Assembly (NCBI GenBank): GCA_964016885.1
Contig: OZ024742.1
Coordinates: forward strand, 102,982,001 to 103,046,000
Source: Eledone cirrhosa
Taxonomy: Eukaryota
Length of the DNA: 64,000 nucleotides
Direction of reading: 5' to 3'
The position numbers were made by a program, and so were the translations under genes. Of this stretch, positions 4,252-59,800 are shown one piece after another; the stretch's first letter is position 1; each line of letters starts with the position of its first letter. The notes below the pieces were generated by a model. It did no database searches and was not told the origin of the DNA. It was given only the letters and a program-made list of their open reading frames with translations.

Positions 4252-5838
4252 GATAGCAACTAACAGTGCTGCGATCGAATGTGGCTTTTTAGCCCAGCCA
4301 ATGATCCAAAATGTCTTGCACAGAGTCGGCAACCAAAACATTTACTGGGAATAGTCGGCTGTGGTTGGAGTTCGTGTACTTTTGCATGTCGCTTGAGTCC
4401 TCCTGCTGATTTACATTCTCTACCACATGTTTGGCAAGCATGATGAGTAACATCTCCAACAGCAGCCTGGTAGTCAACCACTGGTCTTACTTTATGACTG
4501 CGAAGATGACTTTCGAGTCCAGCTTTGCTTAGGCAGAGTCTCGCACAGACGCTGCATGTCAGAAACATAGGAGGACCCTCGCCGTCTGGAAGTGCAACAG
4601 CAATACCCTTCCTCACGTCCCGCTTTACTTTCTCGTGTGCGATTCGAGATGCCTCAAAGGCAACTTTTCCCTCATATACAGTCTTTCTCCATTTATTACG
4701 ATCAGCAGCAATATTTTCCCATGTATCAGCAGAGATGTTAGCGTCTTTCAGAGAGGCCTTCAAGGAATCCTTATACCTCTTTTTTGGTTTATGTGGCGGT
4801 CGTTTTCCTTTAACCAACTCTCCATAGAAGAGTTGTTTTGGTATTCTAGAATCCTTCATCCTGGCAAGGTGACCACTCCAACGGAGTCGCTGCTTAAGCA
4901 CAAGAGCTTCTATACTGTCACACATAGAGCTTTCCAAAATCTCGACATCACTGATGTGGTCCCTCCAGCGAACGCCATGTATCCGTCTGAGACACATCTG
5001 ATGGAAACGCTCCAATTGCTTAAGGTGGCGTCGATATGTGACCCAGGTCTCGCAGGCATAAAGAAGACAAGAGAGTACACATGCCCTGTACACCTTTACC
5101 TTTGTCCTCCTGCATATGTCTCGCCGACCCCAGAGTCGCCTTTCTAGCTTTCCGAAAGCATCACTTGCTTTCCTAATCCTAAGTGAGATTTCACTGTCAA
5201 GGTTGCCGTATCGATTGACAGTGCTTCCCAGGTAGACAAACTGATCAACCACTCCAAGTCGTTTGCCATACACATAGATGTTTGGTTCAGTGTACTGCCT
5301 ACCAGGTGCAGGTTGGTACATGACGACGGTTTTCTTGAGACTGACAGTCAAACCCAGGGCAGTGCAAGCGTCAGAAAATACATTCAAAATGTGCTGCATA
5401 TCACTCTCTGTGTGCGCTACAAGATCGCAATCATCTGCATACAAGAGGTCTCTTATGACTGATGTAAATACTTTTGTCTTCGCAGCAAAGCGCCTGATGT
5501 TAAATATGCTGCCTGAGGTTCGATATCGGATGTAAACACCATGCTCGCAATTCCTGAATGCAATACAGAAAACCATTGCAAAGTATATGGCAAACAGGGT
5601 CGGTGCTGGAATATCCCCCTGTTTCACTCCATTTTTTACTGAGATAGGCTCCGACATGTTACCTCCGACATTAACCCAAGCCTTCATGTCGTCATGGAAA
5701 GACCTAACTAAAGCAAGGAACTTATCAGGGCAACCAAGTTTCTGGAGAACCTTCCATAATGCATCTCTGTTGACAGTATCGAAAGCCTTTGTCAGATCGA
5801 CAAAAACCTGATACAGATCCAAGCCCTGTTCAATGCAC
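3776..5838 (-). mobile_element. RTE-clade LINE, 5'-truncated, copy 1
   Basis: RT ORF plus 3' stem-loop tail and (ATGT)n; 5' junction lies in (TACA)n. Confidence 0.92.
4260..5836 (-). CDS. RTE retrotransposon ORF (RT domain, C-terminal region, three C2H2 fingers), N-terminally truncated
   Basis: VFVDLTKAFDTV, GVKQGDIPAPTLF, LLYADD, FVYLGS, RLRWSGHLARM motifs; uninterrupted for ~525 codons; the ORF-track N-terminal MYVC run is microsatellite. Confidence 0.88.
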
Positions 5839-6014
5839 ATACATACATACATACATACATACATACATACATACATACATACATACCTACCTCCCTACCT
5901 ACCTACATACATACCTACCTACATACATACATACATACATACATACATACATACATACATACATACATACATACATACATACATACATACATACATACAT
6001 ACCTACATATATAT

Positions 6015-27329: not shown

Positions 27330-29997
27330 GTACTGTGAATCAGTCACCGTGCACAACAAAGCCAATGACCTAATAGTAGTTGGATCGATAGGCCACCCCA
27401 AACACCCATACTGCGCTTTAAAGAATGCCTCAACAGCATTAAGTGCTTTATTCAACAGTGCCATTCTGGTAACATATTCATGATGGGTGGCTTTAATCTA
27501 CCCTGTGTTGATTGGTCTACAAACAGTTTGAAACCAGGCACTCCCACCTCAACTGCTGACATAGAAGCAGTAGAGTCATTTCTCGACTTTATGAATGAGT
27601 TTTTCGTGTCCCAACTTGTCCTTGCACCAAGATATCAGAACATTTTGGACCTAATGTTTAGTAACCACACTAACACTATACATAATATTACAGTAGAAAA
27701 AACCCTTCTCTCAGATCATGGCATGGTTCTTTGTAACCTGAGATTCCACCAGCCGAAAGCTAATCCTAGGGATCTCTTTCCAGCCCACCTATTTGATAAC
27801 ATGGATCTCTATAATGCCAACTGGGATGCAATCATGAATGAGTTATCACATGTTGACTGATCTTTTACACACGTACACATCTCCACCAACATCAAAACAT
27901 CTTGGCAGATCTTTGTAGACACTGTCACAAGTATATGTACAAAACACACCCCACCAAGACCTGTGACTAAAACTAAGTGCAGAATCCCTCAAAACAGAAA
28001 AACTATTATCAGAAAAATAAAAAGAACAAACAAAAGAATTATCAAACTAAAATACTGCCAATAGCAACACACACATTCGGCTGCTATCGCACTGCTCGAA
28101 TCAAAGAAATATAGCCTCCAACAATGCATGAAGACCACCATCAATAACCGAAGAACAGCTGAGGAGAAATGGGCGAAAGAAACACATGGTCACTGTCTCC
28201 ACTGTTGGCCCTCTAATTAATGAAAACGGCACTCTCTAAGATAATGCCAAAACTATGGGTGAGATACTGCAGAAACAATACTGCTCTGTTTTCAGCAATC
28301 CTGATATGGTCGATCTGGGCTGTATCAGTGATGTTAATCTCCGACACACTATATCGGACATAACGTTTGGCGCTCCTAGCGGCAATAAACGAAATTAAAC
28401 ACAATTCAGCAGTAGACCCCCGATAGGTTCCCTGCTTGTGCTCTGAAGATGTGTCGACACAACTTGCATTTCTTCTTGCTCATCTGTGGAGGAACTCACT
28501 GGATGCTGGCTATATTCCTGAAAACTTTTTGTCCTAGTCTGTTGTCCCAGTTTTCAAAAAAGGAAACAAGTCCCTTGACTACCGTCCGATCGCACTCACC
28601 TCTCATATCATCAAGGTATTTGAGAGGGTTGTGAGATCATGAATATCCCACTTTCTTGAAAGCAACAGACTACTGAACTCCAACCATCATGGGTTCCGTA
28701 ATGGAAGGGACTGCCTAACGCAGCTCCTGCATCACTTTGATGACATTTTGAGAGCATTGGGACAAGGCTCCAACACTGATGTCATCTACTTTGATTTCAG
28801 CAAGGCCTTTGTCAGGGTTGATTACAAGATTCTATTGAAAAAACTATCCAACATTGGTGTCTTTGGAAAGTTACTGCAATGGATCAAGTGTTTCCTGACA
28901 GACAGAGCCCAACATGTTGTAGTCGAAGGAGTAAAATCAATTCCAGCTAAAGTCAGTAGTGGCGTTCCGAAAGGCACTATGTTGGGCCCACTTCTTTTCA
29001 TCATCTACATTAATGACATTACTGACATCATCAAGCACAGCAACATGAGAATCTTTGCAGATGATTCCAAGCTCCAGATGGTCATCAATGAAGTGGGTGA
29101 CTGGACATGCCTTCAGTCAGACCTACTGGCTACTATCCAATGGGTGAAAAGAACAATATGTTACTGAACGAGGATAAATTTGTGTTAATCCACTTTGGAA
29201 AAGAGAATGCCCTGAAACTCCCATACTCCCTTCCTTCAGGTGAAACTCTCATGGCATCCAACAACATCAGAGGCTTGGGAGTAATTGAGGACAACATAAG
29301 CTGAGCCACTCATATAAACAGCAAAGTTGACATGGTCCGTAGAATGTGTTCCTGGATTCTCAGAACTTTCCAGTCGAGAGATATCCACACCATTATCCTT
29401 CTCTTCTCCACTTTTTCCCACACCCCACCTTGAATACTGTTGTCCACTGTGGTCTCCCCACACGAAACAAAGTATCATGAAAGTTGAAGCACCCCAAAGG
29501 TCAATTACAAAAAAGATAGATGGCATGATAGGCCTTGACTATTGGGGTTGACTAGAAAAGCTCAAACTTTATTCTTTCCAACGTCACTGTGAGCGCTACA
29601 ACATCTGCATGATGTGAAAAATATTCCATTGCCCAAATGATGTTGGCATCACCTTTAAAGTACACCAAAAGCTTGGGCACTATGCTATCCGACCACAACA
29701 CAAATCACTCTCGCATCTCATAACAACAATACGGCACAATTATTTCACCTCAATTGGCCCCGCTCTCTTTAACATTACACCAAAAACACATTAAAACAGA
29801 AACAGACCTCATAAAGTTTAAGAAATCTTTGGACAAATTCCTTCAAGAAATCCCGGATATGTCTCCGTAAATAAAAACTTACTACTTGAGTGGGCCATGG
29901 TATCCAAATCCTGATTTGAAAGACTTCGCCGGGTGGTGCTATTAAGTTAGACATGTACTGGGCCAATACTGGCCGAAAACTATTAAAGTTGTCAAGT
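27330..29997 (+). mobile_element. CR1-group LINE, decayed (APE endonuclease and RT), many stops and frameshifts
   Basis: MGGFNLPCVDW, NILDLMFSN (EN); YFDFSKAF, GVPKGTMLGP, IFADD (RT); PHLEYCCPLWSP; the 3' end recurs on - at ~37945-38020. Confidence 0.9.
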
Positions 29998-30048: not shown

Positions 30049-30107
30049 TACATTGAGTTCTTCATACGTCTTAGACCCTACCATTAATTGGTGGATTTAT
30101 CTGTGTG

Positions 30108-30157
<50 letters not shown>

Positions 30158-30210
30158 GATAAATCCACCAATTAATGGTAGGGTCTAAGCTGTATGAAGA
30201 ACTCAATGTA
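30049..30210. repeat. Inverted repeat (~65-bp arms) around a (TA)n spacer
   Basis: cattgagttcttcatac.tcttagaccctaccattaattggtggatttatctgtgtgtgt / reverse complement at 30149-30210. Confidence 0.8.
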
Positions 30211-30512: not shown

Positions 30513-30551
<39 letters not shown>

Positions 30552-30716
30552 AATTTATATCTAGTAACATATATATACATACAAATGCATATCGATGCTA
30601 GCAAATATATAGGTTTTGTCTTAATAACATTGTGGTTCAATGCATGGGGTTGCAGAACAATAATATAAGAGACGTAAAATAAGAAAATTATAAAATTAAC
30701 TTACTTACTAAAATAT

Positions 30717-30800
30717 CACTTCCAACTAATTAGTTTCTGGAATAGAGTAGATACATCTTCCGAAGAAGGTGTAAAGAAACATCCCGTCATCAGGAAAGTC
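30717..30800 (-). ncRNA. Type I hammerhead ribozyme (family F, left arm)
   Basis: Reverse complement of 31188-31270 with a few substitutions. Confidence 0.75.
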
Positions 30801-31187
30801 AATTCTCATATAAGTTCCAGGCAAAGCGAGGACACTGGAAGCTTATTAAAAATAAATCAGTGAATAGGAAATAGCAAAGCGTGGACTTACTTCCTAGCCA
30901 TTGAGAAAATCACTGCCTCTGTGTCTGTGGCAAATTCAAAAAGAATCGAACACGTGACATCGAGGTCAATCGGTGGAAAGTGGGTTGTTAATAAGACAGC
31001 GGCTAGCCTGCTACCGTAGCAGCAGTCTTGGCCAGTATTGCTCGACAAATATTTTGGAGATAATAATAAAGAATTTATATCTAGGAACATATATATACAT
31101 ACAGATGCATATCGATGCTAGCAAATATATAGGTTTTGTCTTAATAACATTGTGTCCTCGCTTTGCCTGGAACTTATATGAGAATTG

Positions 31188-31270
31188 ACTTTCCTGATGA
31201 CGGGATGTTTCTCTACACCTTCTTCGGAAGATGTATCTACTCCATTCCAGAAACTAATTAGTTGGAAGTG
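31188..31270 (+). ncRNA. Type I hammerhead ribozyme (family F, right arm)
   Basis: ACUUUC-CUGAUGA-cGGGAUG...UACAcCUUC-UUCG-GAAGaUGUA...CAUUCCa-GAAAC-UAAUUA-GUU^GGAAGU. Confidence 0.8.
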
Positions 31271-31819
31271 ATATTTTAGTAAGTAAGTTAATTTTATAAT
31301 TTTCTTATCTTACGTCTCTTATATTATTGTTCTGCAACCCCATGCATTGAACCACAATGTTATTAAGACAAAACCTATATATTTGCTAGCATCGATATGC
31401 ATTTGTATGTATATATATGTTACTAGATATAAATTCTTTATAATTATCTCCAAAATATTTGTCGAGCAATACTGGCCATGACTGCTGCTACGGTAGCAGG
31501 CTAGCCGCTGTCTTATTAACAACCCACTTTCCACCGATTGACCTCGATGTCACGTGTTCGATTCTTTTTGAATTTGCCACAGACACAGAGGCAGTGATTT
31601 TCTCAATGGCTAGGAAGTAAGTCCACGCTTTGCTATTTCCTATTCACTGATTTATTTTTAATAAGCTTCCAGTGTCCTCGCTTTGCCTGTCAAGCTATTT
31701 AAACGTAATGTTATTACTCTAAAGACCTACCCCCCATTGAGTGCTTTGCTACTCATTCCTTATTGTAGGTCGACTTTGCTTGGCTACAGCCAAGGCTTCG
31801 ATTTTACTAAGCGTCCACT

Positions 31820-31855
<36 letters not shown>

Positions 31856-32366: not shown

Positions 32367-32379
32367 TATACTACTCATG

Positions 32380-33170
32380 GATTGGCAATATCGGTAGAGG
32401 GTTGGACACTATGCTTTCCAGCATAGAGTTACGTCTCTTTACACTGGGTTCAAATCCCGCTGAGGTTAACTTTTCCTTTCATCTTTACGGGATCGATAAA
32501 ATAAAGTACCTGTAATGCACTGGAATAATTGCTGTTCTTGCGCCAAAAGTAGAAACAATTATTATTATTAAGGTCGGACGCCATGCTTTGACGTATAGAG
32601 TTACGGCCCTTGCCATTCTGAGTTCAAATCCCGCCAAGGTTAACTTTGCCTTTCATCCTTACGGGGTCGATAAAATACCAGTAATGCACTGGATATTTGC
32701 TGGCCTTGTGCCTAACATAGAAACAATTATTATTAGCGCACGCTTCTTTTTTTTATCACCAATATGAGACTAAGAAAGACATTAAAAACATGATTATACT
32801 AACATATTTAGAGTCATTAGAAAATCTGTGTAGTAAAACCAAAGCACATATTGAAACAAATTATTAAAGGGACTTAAGCCGGAAGGTTTGCTATTTTAGT
32901 AATGAAATAATTGATAACTTTAGTAAATCTCTCAACATTCTTAGTGAATTAAATGAAATGCAGTTGGCAGTATCGGTAGAGCGTTTGACAACATGCTGTA
33001 TGGCATAGGATTACGGCCCTTTACTATCTGAGTTCAAATCCTGCCGAAGTTAGCTTTGCCTTTCATCCTTACGGGGTCGATAAAATAAAGAACCAGTAAT
33101 ACACTGGGTCTATTTAATCGACCCCCCCCCCAAAAAAAAAAATGTGTAGCCTATGCCTATAGTAGAAATC
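32380..33170 (+). mobile_element. Three SINE copies
   Basis: Core gttcaaatccc..Raggttaactttgcctttcatcctt repeated; more copies at 33570-33900 (+), 34410-34830 (-), 36370-36490 (-) and 39310-39480 (-). Confidence 0.75.
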
Positions 33171-34859
33171 ATTATTGATATGGTGATGGAAGGGTTAAAG
33201 AATATAAAAAAGGCGGTTAGAACGTTCTCGATGTAGGCTTGCCTGTGGTTAACCCCCCCCCCCCCCCCCTCCACGAATATTGAAAAGCTAAGTAAACCCT
33301 GAATGGGGTAGACTCTGCACTTGGGCTGGACACTATATCTCAGCTGCACCCCTCGGACAAGTGGGCGAAAGTATTACCGTGAAGAACAGCCAGCGACACC
33401 TGTTGCACGAGCCATTCCACCTCACGTGGCAAACACTACACCTTTGGCTGGACTGTATATCTCAGTTGCCCTCCACCTCACCCACCCCAGAAAAAAAAAC
33501 AACGACACTCGATGCATCAGCTAATTGAACTCCAATTATTGAGGAATGAGACTACTACCAACCGTTTTACAGGCCTTAGACTTCTGAGTTTAAATTCCGC
33601 CAGGATCAACTTTACTTTTTTATCCTTCCGGTTAGAAGGAACAATAAAATTAAGTCCCAGTCAAATACTGAGTTCAACATAATCGGCTTATCCCAGACCT
33701 CACAAATTTCTGGCCTTATGTCTAGATTAGAAATAATTATCATTTATTTATTTATTCATAATGACATGCATCTGAATGAGAGAATAACAATATGCCGAGG
33801 TTAACTTTGCCTTTCATCCTTACGGGGTCGATAAAATAAAGTACCAGTAATGCACTGAGTTATTGCTGGCCTTGTGCCAAAAGTAGAAACAATTATTATT
33901 ACTGCTATTTCTGTAGGGCATGTCTGGACACGATAATAGCCTGCCACTTAAGCCACTGACCATTAAAGCTTTTAACCTTTGACCTCACTAAACACTATTG
34001 CTATTGCTACAACAGCTGTTATATATCATCAACAACAACACTACTACCATTACTATGTTTGACCTTAGGTCAAACGTGATTGAACAAACCAATGATGAAA
34101 GGCTTTCCAGCCATGACCATCTAGTCTGTTTCCTACGTATAAAGAAACCATGGTTATATTATCAAACGTTTCCTTTTTTTTTTTTTAAGAGTAGGAAGTG
34201 ATTTGAGCGAAATTTGGCTGCTACTTCTGACAGGTTGAACGATCACGTAGGTGTTCTCTAGTTGGCTTTACTACTCCGTAGTTTGAATGGTGTGTATGCG
34301 CGTGTTGCTGATGCTAGTGAGGCGACAACATGTGTGTGTGTGCGTGTGCGTACGTGCATGCGTGTGTATGTGCGTATTGTTTATCTGTATATCTCTATCG
34401 ATATAAATTAATTGTTTCTACTTTTGGCACAAGGCCAGCAATTACCCAGTGTATTACTGGTACTTTATTTTATCAACCCCATAAGGATGAAAGGCAAAGT
34501 TAACCTCGGCGGGATTTGAACTCAGAATGGCAAGGGCCGTAACTCTATGCGTCAAAGCATGGCGTCCGACCCTCTACCGATACTGCCAATCCACTGGCCA
34601 TTTATATCTATCGATATAAATTAATTTATATCTATCGATATAAATTAATGTTTGTTTTTTATTCTTTTTCGCCTTGATTATATATTTTTGTGTATTAAAT
34701 AAATATATACATATATATTAGGTTTGAACATACTTGTTTCTACTTTAGGCACAAGGCCAGCAATTACCCAGTGCATTATTGGTACTTTATTTTATCGACC
34801 ACGTAAGGATGAAAGGCAAAGTCAACTAATGGAATCATATTCCAAATGTCACTGGCTCC

Positions 34860-40429: not shown

Positions 40430-43400
40430 AGAATTGAATGACTCACCCCCAGCCACAAGATCCTATGAGAAACTGGTAACAAGCTCGCATGTGTGCGTCC
40501 TGAACTCTGGGTCTTTCCCCTGGGAATTCTCTCTTCCCCCCACCTGGGGGGGGGGGGGGTTGTACATTCATCCATTTACTAACATTCTACCTTCTTGTGT
40601 GTCCACCTCCATGCACCCCTTCTTTTCTCTCTTGTCCTCTGACGCCTCTATATCTGATGTAGGTGAGCTATGAGGCCCTCTTACCAGCACTTTCCCTTCC
40701 ACCCACACACGCCAGCCACTCACCTCTGATGCTGCTCGATGCTCCAGTCCCCGGCCCCACGCTCCATCCCCCATCCCCCAAGCCGACACCTGCAGCACTT
40801 GCAGCACCACTAACAGACGGAAGAGGGCGGGGTGCGGCTGCTTCCACCACCTCACCTGTGTTGGCTTGACACGTCTTCGCAGCGTGGAGATGCAGGAACT
40901 GCCTCTTCCCCTCGTCTGCCCAGCCACGGCCGTCTGGCACACCACCAGATGAGACAGCGAGCTTGCCTGGCCCCAAGCCTCGCTGGTCAACATCGCTCGG
41001 TTCAGGCGGCTCCAGAAGATCCCACTCAGGATCCCGAAAGCAGCCCGGGTGCCGGTAGCCGATGCCCTCGCTTCCTCGATTGAAGGCGCCCTGGACTCCA
41101 ATCGAGCCAGTGACTGGGAGCGACTCTTTTATTTCGCCCCACTCGCCCTCGGCCTTCCCAGCTCTGGCGCTGACCGGGGCGGCCGGTCGACAGCAGCCTT
41201 CGTCAAGGCCAGTGTTTCGTCCTTTGGGCAAACGCCCATTCCAAGCGTGCACAGGGACCCCACACACCCACCCTCGGGTACCCCCAATCCTCCACCACTG
41301 AGGCCAGCGCCAAGCGTTTGCGAGACCGCGTAAATGCTAAACTAATCATGGGTGATGTCTCAGCCGCAATCAGAGTGGTTGCCTCAGAGGACACTGTCCT
41401 CCAGCCCACCGAGGAGTTCCTGGCTGCCCTGCGACTCAAACACCCTGAGCCACCCGCTGATCTCAGACCCATACCCCCACCCGACCCAACTTACTCCTTG
41501 TGGCTTCCGACGCAGACATCATGTCTGCCATCAAGTCCTTCCCAGCTAGCAGCAGCGGAAGTGCTGATGGTCTCCGACCAGGCCACCTCAAGGAATTGCT
41601 ATGCTCCCTCTCCGCTGAGGCCGGGCGCCGCCTTCTGAGTGCAATTGTGGGGCTCACGAATAGGCTCATCCATGGCACCCTGGACCCTCATGCCCGAAGC
41701 CTCTTTTTTCGGCTAGCCTCACCGCTCTCAGAAAGAAAGAGTGTGACATACGCCCCATCGCTGTGGGCAATGTCTTCCAGAGGCTGTCTGCCAAGGTGGT
41801 CTGCAGGTCCATAACACCCGACCTGGGTGAGGAGTTCCGTCCGGTTCAACTGGGTGACAGGGTGTCCGGTGGCTGTGAGTGGGCCGCACATGCAACCAAG
41901 CAGTTCTTCAACAGCTGCCCACCGGAACCAGCATCAGGGACTCCAGGCACCTCATTGTCAAGCTTGACATGAGGAATGCCTTCACCTGCTTGCGCCGGGA
42001 CCATCTGCTCGATATCTGCCTCAGCCGAGCCCCCCTCTGCCTACCCGCTGGCCTACCTGTCGTATGGAGCCCCGAGCTGCTGATACGGTCATACCTTCAG
42101 CTACTAGGGTCCAACAAGGCGACCCTTTGGGACCCTCCTGTTTGCCCTTGGTATAGACCACAACGCCCGGAGTATCACGGCCCCTCTCAACGTTTGGTAT
42201 CTGGATGATGCTACGTTGGGCGGGCCCGTACAGACTGTCTGCCATGACCTACAATCGGTGGCTCCTGCCCTGGCGGGAATCGGCCTCCAGGCAAAGTCGG
42301 AGGTGGTGAATGTCAGCAACGATGCTGAGAGCTTTGCAGCCTCCGTCTCGGACGTGCGGTCCATTCTCCACCAGGTACAGGTGACCCCCAAAGAGGATGT
42401 CCTCATCCTCGGGTCACCGATCCACCCGCCGGCTATCCGCTCCACCAGCAGGTCTAGGTTTCAACAACTCCAGAATCTAACGAGCCGATTGGGCCTGATC
42501 GACGGCCACCCAGCTCTCTTTCTGTTGAGGAACTGCTTCGCTATGCCGAAGCTCCTCTACACCCTCCGCAGCGCTTCGTGCTACACCCACACATCTCTCC
42601 TCGCTGACCTCGATACTTGTATCCGAGCAGAAGCTGAGGAGATATGCAACGTCAAGTTTGACGACATTGGATGGCAACAGGCCACTTTACCTGTCAGGTA
42701 TGGCGGCCTTGGCCTCCGGTCCCCGATCTCGCTGGCTTTGCCGGCGTATCTTTCGTCGGTAACCTCGTGCCGCGTCCTCGTCAGCAGGGTTCTTCAAAAC
42801 ACAATAGAACCCTCTGTGTTCAGAGAACGTGAGGCCGCATGTGAGACGTGGGACCGGCTGGGACTTAGCCCAGTAGACGTCCCTCCTTTTCCCCTTGTTG
42901 ACGTCACGTCCCCCCAAAGCACTTGGGATGCCATCCAGCGCAGCCTGGCCTCAGACAGGCTCACGCGCCAGCTCGACCAGCACCGCCTTGCTTGCTTTCG
43001 TGCGGCCTCGAAACCCCACAGTGGTGCCTGGCTCCATGCCCTGCCCTCCTTCTCCACTGGCACGCAGCTAGACAACAATAGCCTGCGCATCGGCGTTTCC
43101 TTGAGGCTCGGCCTCCGGATCTGCGAGCCACACCAATGTCGCTGCGGATCCACCGTGGACTCTTTCAGCCTCCACCCGCTTTCTTGTCGTCACAGTGCCT
43201 GCCGCCTTCAACGCCATGCTGCCATCAACGAGATCATAAAGCATAGCTTGAACGCTGCGGGCTTCCCTTCCCGGCTCGAGCCGGTGGGGCTGGACCAAGG
43301 GGACGGCAAAAGGCCAGATGGCATGACCATCTTCCCGTTCCGCGGTGGCAAACCCCTCGTCTGGGATGCTACTTGCACCGACACTTTCTGCAGCCGCAAC

Positions 43401-43745
43401 CTGGTGTAGTCTTCCACTAACCCAGGTTCTGCTGCACGTCGGGCTGAGGAGGCCAAGCTCCTCAAATACCGGTCGCTCTCCGACAGGTTTGCGGTTGTAC
43501 CCCTGGCAGTGGAGATTTCTGGTTTCCTCGGCCCCAGGGCTACCTCCCTACTTACCACCATAGGCGCTGAGCTGGCCAGCCGCAGGTGTGAGCTCCGCGA
43601 GTTGGAGTGGCTTTTCCAGCGCGTCTCCCTTGCCGTCCTCCGCGGGAACGCCTTCTCCACCTGTCCGCCGGGGCTGTGGGAGGGCCCCATCGCGTAACAT
43701 TCCATATTTAGTTATCCGAAACACAAAACCTGTTTATTTAGTCAC
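40430..43745 (+). mobile_element. Near-full-length CRE-like (RLE) non-LTR retrotransposon, frameshifted
   Basis: RIPKAAR...W..LF.FA, IVKLDMRNAF, VQQGDPLGP, WYLDDATLGG, CRCG..HPLSC, RHAAINEII, RPDG...WDATC, KY...PLAVEISG, QRVSLAVLRGN; premature TAG at 43407; followed by (TATG)n; 5' boundary uncertain. Confidence 0.88.
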
Positions 43746-56831: not shown

Positions 56832-59800
56832 GCTTCAATGCATGCAGTTAATCGTTATAGTAGTGAGCTTGGATGTTGACCGGCCTTTGTTTAGAATATT
56901 TAGCAAGTATCGTATCGCTTTATAACTTTGTCCTTCCAATGTCCACGTGTATCGATTGAATTAATCCTGTACTCCAGTCAGTGTTTGTTCTCTGAGAACT
57001 TTCCAGTTTGTGTCTGTGTGTTCGTGCACTGATCTTGTTGCGTCATATGGTGCAATAGTCGGCCAAGATTTCGTTCTCGGTTTGGGACTTACACACACAC
57101 ACCTACGCGTGTGCCACGATGGACTATTAACTAACCAGTTTGGATTCGTGGGATACAGGGTTCGAATGTTAACTAGATTTTATGTCTTAGTTGACATTGT
57201 TTAAAATTCAATTCATCGTATGCAAAAAAAGAAAAAGCTTCTTAAATATCAAAGGATCCTTTTAGTATATACTTTTGTCATTAATGCTTATTCTTCATAT
57301 TTACAAAGGTCGTAGTGTTTTTTTAGTTTATGGAATTTATTTGATATCGGGTATTAAACGGAATTCTTTTTGTTAGGTTAAAGTGCGTGTGTGCAACGGT
57401 GTATAATTTTATATAACGTTAATAAAATTTTAATATTGTTCCGTTAGAAAATAATAATGTCAACTTGCAAAAGTTAAATCTAGAAGTAGCTGGATTAAAA
57501 GTTTAAATGTGCGGAATTAATTTGCATTAAACGGTCTCTGTTAGTCGGGGATTTCCTGGAAAGCTCGGGAATTTCAAATACATGTGATCGTAACATGTGT
57601 TAGATTTTTATCAGTTGGAATTAGGGTCAAATATCCTCATACCATTTATATTTATTTTATGAAATTTTAGATTATAAATAACAATTTTATTTATTATTGA
57701 CCGATAAGAATCGACTTTTTTATTTATTTATTTATTTATTTTTTAAAAATTACTTTTAGTTCAGTTGAACCGGTGAAAGCGATTATATTTGTCTTACGGA
57801 TTAGGAAAAAATATTTGTCGACACAAACATCTAGGTAGTACAGAATATGATGCTAGTTATTGACCCTTCTGAATGGGTAACTTTAATTTTGAACTGTTTG
57901 TATTTTTGTTTGTAGGGTGTCGTGTGACGGCAAACTTCGTCACCAGACTTGTGTGATATGTACTGTACTAGTTTCGTCATAAGTTCAAAAAACGACATTC
58001 CTATCTTTTGGTTTATAATAAATTACATAGACTGATCTTTCTTCTTTTTTTTTTCCTTTGAACCCCGTTATTAAAACGATCGTATTAATAGTAAAATAGG
58101 AAACGCTGTAAGCTCTGTCACCCCCCCCCCCCCCCATTTGTTTTACATAAACAATTGTATACTCGCTTTTTTTTTTTTTTTTTTTTTTTTTTCTGTCAAT
58201 TTTTAGCTCTTATTTTCGATTACCTGTAATGTTTTTATTTCTATTTTGTCCACAGAAGCATGGATATCGGCCAGGCTTTGAGCGAATTGATCCTTAAATC
58301 TAGCTCAGAGGGCAGACTGACCTGCGGTGTGGCGAGTTCGGTGAAGTTGTTAGAAATGTAAGTTTTAATTTTATTTGATATTACTTTTTTAAATACGAAA
58401 TAATAAAAAACGCAATTTTAAATTTGTTTTTACCGCATAAAATGTTGAATTCATTGCCAAGATATTTGTTAGTGGCTGGCTATTTATAGATGTTTTTTTG
58501 TTGACAGCTTTATTTAGCTCCTAGACAAAAACAAGTTTGCTCTGGAATTTTTTTTATAAGTAAATAAAAATTCTCGTGACACTTCATGTACTTGTAGGAT
58601 AACAGGTTACCCTGAGAACTTCTGCACGTGTTATACGTGGACGGCTGTTAATAGATGTTCTTACCACGTGCACATTTTTTTCTTTTTTTTTTTCTGTCCT
58701 TTCTGTGGTACAGATTTAAATTTTGTATCAGTTGGTGGTTAACTGATATTTATTCGTAACTCCCGATGGCGTTGTCTTGGGCACTTTACACCTGGCGGGC
58801 CCATCAAGAGGTTGCACTAGTTGGCTATGCTCCCTTACTTTTCGATGGTGCACTCTCAGATTTAGAAACAAATGCTGTGATATACTTATTGCGAATTAGA
58901 ATGCTTACCTAAAATCTTCTAAAGCCGCCTTTGAATATTGGACTGGTACCGCGAAATTGACCTCACGTGTGCAGTGAGTTGGAACGAATACAGCAAGTCA
59001 TGTACTTAATGACTGCTAATTCGCCACATATACTGACTGATTCATAAATTTTATTGGAAAAAAAAAAAATAGGGCTAAATAAGCCAGCCCTTACAGATTT
59101 ATGCCTTCATATTAGTTCTAATTTTAGTAATTATATTTTCTTAGTGCTTTTAACGAACGTTTTCTAACAAACAATTCAACTTTTCTATTTTCTACAGGGG
59201 TCCAAATTTTATTCTACTTTGCATCCTGCCAGTAGATCGGAACCAATCTGTCATGGTCAGCATTCAACAAACATTGGTGGAAGCGTTTTGTCGTGATAAC
59301 GATATAAATCTTGTAAAAGTAGACAGTACTGAGAAATTGTCAGCGCTTGTCAGATATGATGATGACCTAAATGACAACGAACAAGATTATAGGGATTATT
59401 GCTGTGTTCTTGTACAGGTGAGAATTTACCTAAATTTGTTTTTAACCAATATTAGCTTAGTTAGGGTATTCTGCTCAATTGTAAAAGTCGTGAATTTTGT
59501 TCTGGTGGTACCTTGTTTTTGAGCAAGATACGATATTTCACGTGGCTCCAGTTCATTCAGTTGGTAAAAAGGATTTGTACCTGTTATTCAAAGGACTAAC
59601 CTTGTCACACTGTGTGGTGAATGTATTTGGAATATTCAGCCACTTGCATGTTAATTTCAGAACTGATGGGAGTTCAAGGACCGGCTCACTGCTTTGAGCC
59701 CATTCTATCTTGTATGGCTAAAAATGTTTGGCATCAATATTGTTGAATATTTGAAGCTAACAGCATTGTTTTATATTTCAAATCTATTTTGGAATAAAAT

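Follow-up and report, generated by a model that had tools for sequence, protein, structure and literature searches.

Introduction

Non-LTR retrozymes are known from coral, mussel and axolotl, in which their circular RNAs have been demonstrated, and Penelope-like elements (PLEs) were considered 'a strong candidate' for their mobilisation (Cervera and de la Pena 2020, PMC7229834). Retrozymes were also proposed to be non-autonomous PLE derivatives, with the mechanism of their movement still to be worked out (Li, Clavereau and Pollet 2026, bioRxiv 10.64898/2026.07.22.740005). PLE insertions include inverted 5'-truncated copies, often bear a tail at one end only and use (TA)n targets (PMC8557442). 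The PLE of the anole nicks and extends both strands, possesses two internal start sites of the reverse transcriptase (RT) that define the tail, and is predicted to act as a dimer; its hammerhead ribozyme (HHR) is dispensable in vitro, and no HHR cutting was seen in RNA-seq (PMC11167929). In the HHRs of PLEs, A9 is followed by an additional nucleotide and helix III is palindromic, and opposite-strand HHR pairs 100-700 bp apart, together with a circular-template model, were already presented in PMC4209133. Statements on these five sources, here and below, refer to the accessible portions of their texts. A full-text literature search, with most subscription papers outside its range, returned neither a retrozyme from a cephalopod nor a pairing rule backed by counts, nor insertions ending at an HHR cut.

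Here we describe a fold-back locus found in a 64,000-nt stretch of the Eledone cirrhosa genome (hereafter the window). With a probability of roughly 0.85, the locus represents one insertion of a non-coding HHR repeat, likely a non-autonomous PLE (i.e., a non-LTR retrozyme), twin-primed on one RNA. We are quite confident that the family is of this known kind, with unusually clear mechanistic footprints. The copy in the window is less special than first proposed, and it is the family that provides countable evidence on integration and cleavage in vivo.

Organisation of the fold-back locus

The locus starts in an (AT)n microsatellite at its left end (window 30516..30548), which is the target site and has counterparts at nearly all ends of the family. 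The left arm (30546..31154, minus strand, 609 nt) comprises U202-520 followed by U1-291, where U denotes the 520-nt reference unit taken from window 31152-31671, and its 3' end coincides with a fixed family end, e2. The right arm (31152..31689, plus strand, 538 nt) comprises U1-520 followed by U1-18, and its 3' end is atypical. The two arms meet 5'-to-5' at 31152..31154 through a 3-nt GTG microhomology, are 98-99% complementary over 337 and 296 nt, and are distinguished from each other at 7 positions. The direct repeats at 30546/31066 and 31152/31672 are both spaced by 520. The first-pass annotation had described a fold-back dimer of a non-coding 520-nt unit joined 5'-to-5' at gtg, and in these respects its description stands; the longest stop-free stretch in U is 76 codons.

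A conserved hairpin followed by the other fixed end of the family, e1 (U173 = 31324), lies inside the right arm at 31276..31324 (plus strand). A 120-nt 'tail' extends from e1 to e2 (31325..31444, plus strand; U291-293 = 31442-31444). Beyond the right arm, 131 nt of a second repeat, 'family B', replace the expected e1 end (31690..31820, plus strand), and the locus terminates in another (AT)n microsatellite (31821..31853).

We rejected the possibility of an assembly artefact because dozens of loci carry fold-backs, each with different junctions. No RNA data set is listed among the public runs that carry the sequence. Among the contigs of four public runs (library kind unspecified), no piece covers the whole locus; these contigs have loose ends running into (AT)n at e1 (positions 31324 and 30663), and 9 of the 15 joints listed resume at U116-125.

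Two fixed 3' ends

We parsed 66 non-redundant loci, consisting of 26 best hits (30 minus four duplicates, a set biased to long arms) and 40 loci taken in order along one contig (C1) from its first 100 motif matches. As many as 104 of the 123 arms stop at e1 (54 arms) or e2 (50 arms) and then enter (AT)n; in the position-sampled set of 40 loci, 26 of which are divergent two-arm insertions, 61/71 arms end at the fixed sites. The 5' ends of the arms are dispersed over the entire unit. The 44 family junctions comprise 27 overlaps of 1-6 nt, two blunt joins and 15 with inserted or unaligned bases. A conserved hairpin lies about 10 nt upstream of both e1 and e2, and each of these ends finishes in a short UA-rich stretch with the potential to base-pair to a nicked (TA)n strand.

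The arms had been interpreted at first as circularly permuted, each running slightly more than one turn. The latter is true of both arms in the window, but not of the family, where the position-sampled arms have a median length of 341 nt and only 21/71 are longer than 520. The former is not borne out, as the tabulated 3' termini cluster at two sites and only the 5' ends vary. The variation at the 5' ends reflects ordinary truncation, and arms that are inverted and 5'-truncated are no sign of circular permutation, because they belong to the usual layout of PLEs (PMC8557442). It is thus very improbable that every arm was copied from a circular RNA with free permutation and slightly beyond full length, an idea refuted as it was stated: the over-length window arms and the spread of 5' ends would suit it, but the 3' ends are fixed, the typical arm is shorter than a turn, and the odd right end of the window copy is a chimera.

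The insertions display the characteristics of PLE-type integration, namely 5' truncation, partial tandems, an inverted 5'-truncated copy and two fixed 3' ends in (AT)n. They share with published PLE insertions the inverted 5'-truncated arm, the two fixed 3' ends, the tail at one end, the (TA)n target, an HHR upstream of the start sites, the palindromic stem III and the extra nucleotide after A9 (PMC8557442; PMC11167929; PMC4209133). They differ in having no ORF, a tail of 120 nt rather than 30-40, an extra A before G12 and a GUU cleavage site.

One-of-each pairing of e1 and e2

In 43 divergent loci (two complex loci were skipped), both outer ends are canonical in 33, and 32 of these combine e1 with e2; e2+e2 occurs once (locus L056) and e1+e1 never (p=8e-9). 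The other 10 loci, the window copy included, have one atypical end. In the sister subfamilies, all 30 pairs called by a classifier among 52 loci were e1+e2, although about two of the 30 calls are doubtful, as the classifier makes some false e2 calls, and one duplicates a locus of the 33-locus count. Either fixed site can occupy either side of the fold-back. The pairing is strict here, whereas the start sites of the anole PLE were used in vitro without strand difference (PMC11167929).

The two arms of a locus differ at 39 of 806 diagnostic sites (38 two-arm loci), as opposed to medians of 14-78% for arms of other loci. Thus, both arms likely originate from one template or one source locus, and one template was likely read twice, as judged from these diagnostic sites. 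At L066, the arms (U83-173 and U186-291) do not overlap, each having its own fixed end. Arms therefore need not overlap, and one arm is not a copy of the other.

In LINE-1 twin priming, two primers act on one RNA and the cDNAs are joined via microhomology, resulting in an inversion; the position of the second priming event varies, and there is hardly any overlap between the arms. The insertions described here resemble such products in having two primers per RNA, a microhomology join and an inversion, but differ in that priming takes place at two fixed internal sites, the overlap of the arms extends over hundreds of nucleotides, and either site can lie on either side. LINE fragments are present in the window and some of the unit arrays expanded after insertion, so that mobilisation by a LINE (RTE or CR1/L2) with L1-style twin priming, or a DNA-level satellite with inverted duplications, deserves consideration. 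Both are very unlikely: the two ends of the family are internal and fixed, a LINE tail of poly(A) or short repeats is missing, and a duplication at the DNA level cannot generate non-overlapping arms each with its own fixed end, as found at L066.

The hammerhead ribozyme

Type I hammerheads are predicted in the left arm (30718..30799, minus strand, with the cut between 30724 and 30723) and in the right arm (31188..31269, plus strand, cut at 31263/31264), both backed by covariation across the family. The right-arm HHR is composed of a 6-bp stem I, CUGAUGA, a 49-nt stem II region capped by C(UUCG)G, GAAA, and a 2-bp stem III with the palindromic loop UAAUUA, followed by the triplet GUU (31261-31263). 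Its core lies at 31194-31200 and 31250-31253. It is atypical in carrying an unpaired C after A9 (31201) and an unpaired A before G12 (31249); as both flank the base of stem II, the G-C pair of this stem is found one step out. The extra A is not among the traits given for PLE HHRs in the accessible text of PMC4209133.

The HHR had been called well-formed, which holds for the core, the three stems and the cap; the HHR also covaries. The extra C and A and the GUU triplet depart from a well-formed type I HHR, the active fold lies 3.7-3.9 kcal/mol above the local minimum free energy, and the locus has no Rfam hit that reaches the gathering scores. Folded on its own, the motif is not more stable than shuffled sequences (z -0.1 to -0.7), single-sequence folding being uninformative here. 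Across 17 diverse HHR rows, one of which is a false match, 11 of 22 pairs show double-sided change, with the shuffle control inflated by the kinship of the sequences, and 85% of cells pair against 33-46% in slid controls. In alignment A3, the HHR row of L127 is false and stem I is truncated in four rows. In the unselected half of the core (CUGA-GA), variants occupy 5/375 cells, compared with 934/22,103 outside the HHR; at the free position N7 they occupy 15/62.

We noticed several further, unrelated type I HHR families (L018:1091, L062:2601 and 3014, L116:1182, L179:2339, L188:1266 and others), of which many are arranged as inverted pairs and several have one unpaired base at each side of stem II. 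The genome seems to be rich in retrozyme-like or PLE hammerheads. Directly after the HHR, at window 31276-31286 (U125-135), U carries an invariant GTAAGT resembling a splice donor, and a branch-point-like CTGA with an AG is located near U490-U1 (window 31640-31672). An intron within U is speculative, because the AG is missing from 4 of 13 aligned units and the GTAAGT donor doubles as one strand of the e1 hairpin.

Family size, subfamilies and arrays

A gapped HHR pattern has 10,376 exact matches in the 3.0-Gb genome of the species, and an exact 21-mer of the HHR occurs 2,510 times (control, 0 in each case). A similarity search of the same genome gave 2,250 first-look candidates, and many of the best 40 scored are 96-99% identical. 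Unit lengths range over 507-560 nt among subfamilies (complete units 518-558 nt, and others of about 507-511 nt), with tandem units of 522, 542, 558 and 518 nt found head to tail. The complete units are 68-89% identical to the window type, and identity across subfamilies is 68-90%. Their conservation extends over the whole unit, and compensatory changes occur in several of its hairpins (15/114 predicted pairs). Folding of the complete unit is much stronger than that of shuffled sequences (z -5.3 as linear, -4.5 as circular RNA). A search with a short-stem-II HHR pattern detected relatives and one probable chance match.

Like the metazoan non-LTR retrozymes of PMC7229834 and the 2026 preprint, the family consists of short, non-coding tandem units of low GC (36% in U) with highly self-paired RNA and one type I HHR each, and occurs in thousands of copies, from monomers to multimers, together with PLEs. 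Its units of 507-560 nt are longer than the invertebrate examples of about 170-400 nt (PMC7229834), the range in the preprint being 51-972. Fixed dual 3' ends, fold-backs, microsatellite targeting and 5' ends at the cut are found here and are not described for retrozymes in the accessible text of either source, which also names no cephalopod; conversely, circles were demonstrated for the retrozymes of PMC7229834, whereas for the present family they are hypothetical. It does not belong to the plant-type LTR retrozymes, which carry a type III HHR in two LTRs and have a 4-bp TSD, as the HHR is of type I and no LTRs are present: insertions end at fixed sites in (AT)n. The multicopy head-to-tail insertions also recall the Chlamys MRC1 elements, which are non-autonomous PLE derivatives (PMC8557442). 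In that type, however, the 3' end generally resembles that of an autonomous family, and the clade of these elements lacks canonical HHRs; no such partner was found here.

Head-to-tail arrays contain 11 to at least 15 complete units without any ORF. Arrays of up to at least 15 units were seen at L146 and L148-L153, where some fold-backs are multi-turn on both arms, and higher-order duplications are present in the long arrays L146, L150 and L151. Unit trees within arrays, computed with L011 left out (an anchor artefact), are mixed, with higher-order repeats. These retrozyme arrays with higher-order duplications are a case of satellite birth from an element. A 3.6-kb gap in HHR matches on another contig (C2) was found to be an array whose HHRs are mutated.

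Relationship to coding Penelope-like elements

The genome harbours a young coding PLE with RT and GIY-YIG domains, represented by dozens of ORFs that are 99-100% identical (L071-L100, L219-L238) and, read by eye, have a CxxC linker. This element has two fixed ends about 66 nt apart, and one of each was present in all 11 two-ended loci among the 20 fetched. A scan of 12 of its loci detected no canonical HHR, and the element has no similarity to U beyond the microsatellite. As the same one-of-each geometry recurs despite unlike sequences, the geometry of the retrozyme is tied to PLE enzymes. The earlier suggestion of mobilisation by PLE-type enzymes is supported by this shared geometry, by the covariation of the HHR and by the lack of a contiguous ORF in every copy examined. 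With the integration signature of PLEs present in both the family and the coding PLE, retrozymes are linked to PLE enzymes by mechanism, beyond co-occurrence or sequence.

Among the roughly 40 best DNA candidates scored per search, none was a coding PLE with sequence in common with the unit. The C-rich PLE beside L160, the one other coding family with an end that was read, was rejected as a partner; it bears its own terminal repeat, and its end looks unrelated by eye. If the arms were 5'-truncated pseudo-LTR remnants of a coding PLE, there would be no independent family. The layout of tandem and inverted copies, tail and HHR does match the pseudo-LTRs of PLEs. Nevertheless, this explanation is largely refuted and can be kept only as an outside chance: units run head to tail without ORFs for up to at least 15 turns, the unit is conserved over its whole length across the subfamilies, no ORF lies inside or contiguous with any examined unit, and PLE ORFs located nearby are set apart by microsatellite runs or wrongly oriented.

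A probable cleavage footprint and the RNA template

The subfamily of the window shows no enrichment of 5' ends at the predicted cut, with five matches (three events) there as against seven (five loci) at a control position, U99. In two sister types, 32 matches (29 loci) start exactly at the cut, an excess that, set against an upper-bound denominator in place of a matched control, gives p=0.002-0.085. We fetched 25 of these matches (24 loci), of which 23 are fold-back junctions and a single one employs microhomology in stem I. In 7 of the 24 loci, the two arms both terminate within 1 nt of the cut, compared with 3 of 44 same-point junctions elsewhere (p=0.027). In three of these seven symmetric loci neither arm goes beyond the first unit, in three the e1 arm is longer by one turn, and one is ambiguous. 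The ends at the cut probably reflect an RT running off a 5' end made by the ribozyme, and would then be a trace of in vivo self-cleavage; an RT stalled by the palindromic stem III would yield the same end position. Some insertions look like copies of a linear RNA whose 5' end is the HHR cut. Such ends bear on whether PLE-type hammerheads cut in vivo.

Because only ~1% of HHR copies have an end at the cut, the usual template must be uninterrupted at this site, as either a ligated circle or a multimer left uncut. The divergence of successive turns is 1.27% within arms and 1.91% between arms, and that of same-position copies 1.55%, differences that are not significant (p=0.18); the low turn-to-turn divergence fits a circle, and young sources as well. 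Junction reads cannot decide on circularity, because genomic tandems hold the same junction, nor are multimers a proof of rolling-circle copying, given the higher-order duplications in long arrays. We consider it an even bet that the main template is circular.

A substantial, though lesser, share of our belief goes to the same element and enzyme working from a template that is only linear, mostly as uncut multimer, with circles irrelevant to transposition. Long source arrays exist for such a template, the three symmetric loci with both arms in the first unit after the cut and the three with the longer e1 arm are each compatible with a linear RNA beginning at the cut, a few variants are common to units of opposite arms, and unprocessed RNA serves the anole PLE as template in vitro (PMC11167929). 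Against it, the divergence between successive turns does not exceed that of same-position copies, which is what a single circle predicts, the HHR has been conserved although it is almost always read through, and the retrozymes of coral, mussel and axolotl accumulate as circles (PMC7229834).

One observation concerning the cut site comes from L209-L211, where an insertion skips the whole HHR and the join lies exactly at the cut. We dismissed these loci as an HHR-less sub-lineage, since they represent a single duplicated event.

A model of integration

For the insertion considered here as a twin-primed, non-autonomous PLE, we propose the following course. Tandem copies would be transcribed, and the HHR, probably dimeric via its palindromic stem III, would cut slowly at GUU, as the 5' ends in the sister subfamilies suggest. 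The template would be a re-ligated circle or, with about equal probability, a mostly uncut multimer; the great majority of arms do read through the cut site. Copying was probably carried out by a PLE reverse transcriptase-endonuclease acting as a dimer. From the observed fixed ends and their pairing, we infer that this enzyme nicks both (AT)n strands, so that the 3' end on one strand starts at e1 and that on the other strand at e2 (twin priming). The two cDNAs would halt at variable points and be joined by the microhomology or short inserts seen at the junctions, producing the fold-back. In the dimer, one protomer may serve each start site, which would be a simple account of inverted PLE insertions with a tail at one end.

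It is attractive to speculate further that an asymmetric PLE dimer reads one ribozyme-processed circle from two non-equivalent sites, that obligate e1+e2 pairing is a rule for PLE integration at large, and that the family is an RNA-circle replicon of ~10,000 copies. We hold this extended version tentatively, at slightly below even odds. If it is true, the insertions record both the pairing rule and ribozyme cleavage in vivo. A 520-nt RNA with two mapped start sites offers a compact substrate for in vitro work.

The atypical right end and family B

The segment at 31690-31820 is the 3'-terminal 131 nt of family B, an abundant repeat (1,597 candidates) with a fixed end in (AT)n, and is fused to U18 via a TG microhomology. 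The right end of the window copy is therefore a chimera with another repeat, and termination at U18 is coincidental to this copy. The 131 nt may have been acquired in place of e1 by a template switch, with a cDNA begun on family B RNA and then continued on U, or by a later insertion deleting U19-173. Family B is tandem and non-coding, with a unit of about 620-630 nt (L178-L206), in which no PLE ORF and no canonical HHR were found. Judging from these features, it is possibly an HHR-less non-autonomous PLE.

Other repeats and frames in the window

A frame at window 59154-59522 gave no Pfam hit, and presumably resembles an exon of the GADD45 family. LINE-type remnants are located at window 4260-5894, 27369-29167 and 42108-43409, and comprise an RT with C2H2 fingers, endonuclease and RT fragments, and a 433-aa RT-like frame without a Pfam hit. 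About 340 nt to the left of the retrozyme fold-back, an 81-bp perfect fold-back is centred on an (AT)n run (window 30049-30210). A SINE-like repeat of about 190 nt, with many copies also found elsewhere in the window, occurs at positions 32378-32737, 32964-33109, 33794-33909 and 34409-34594.
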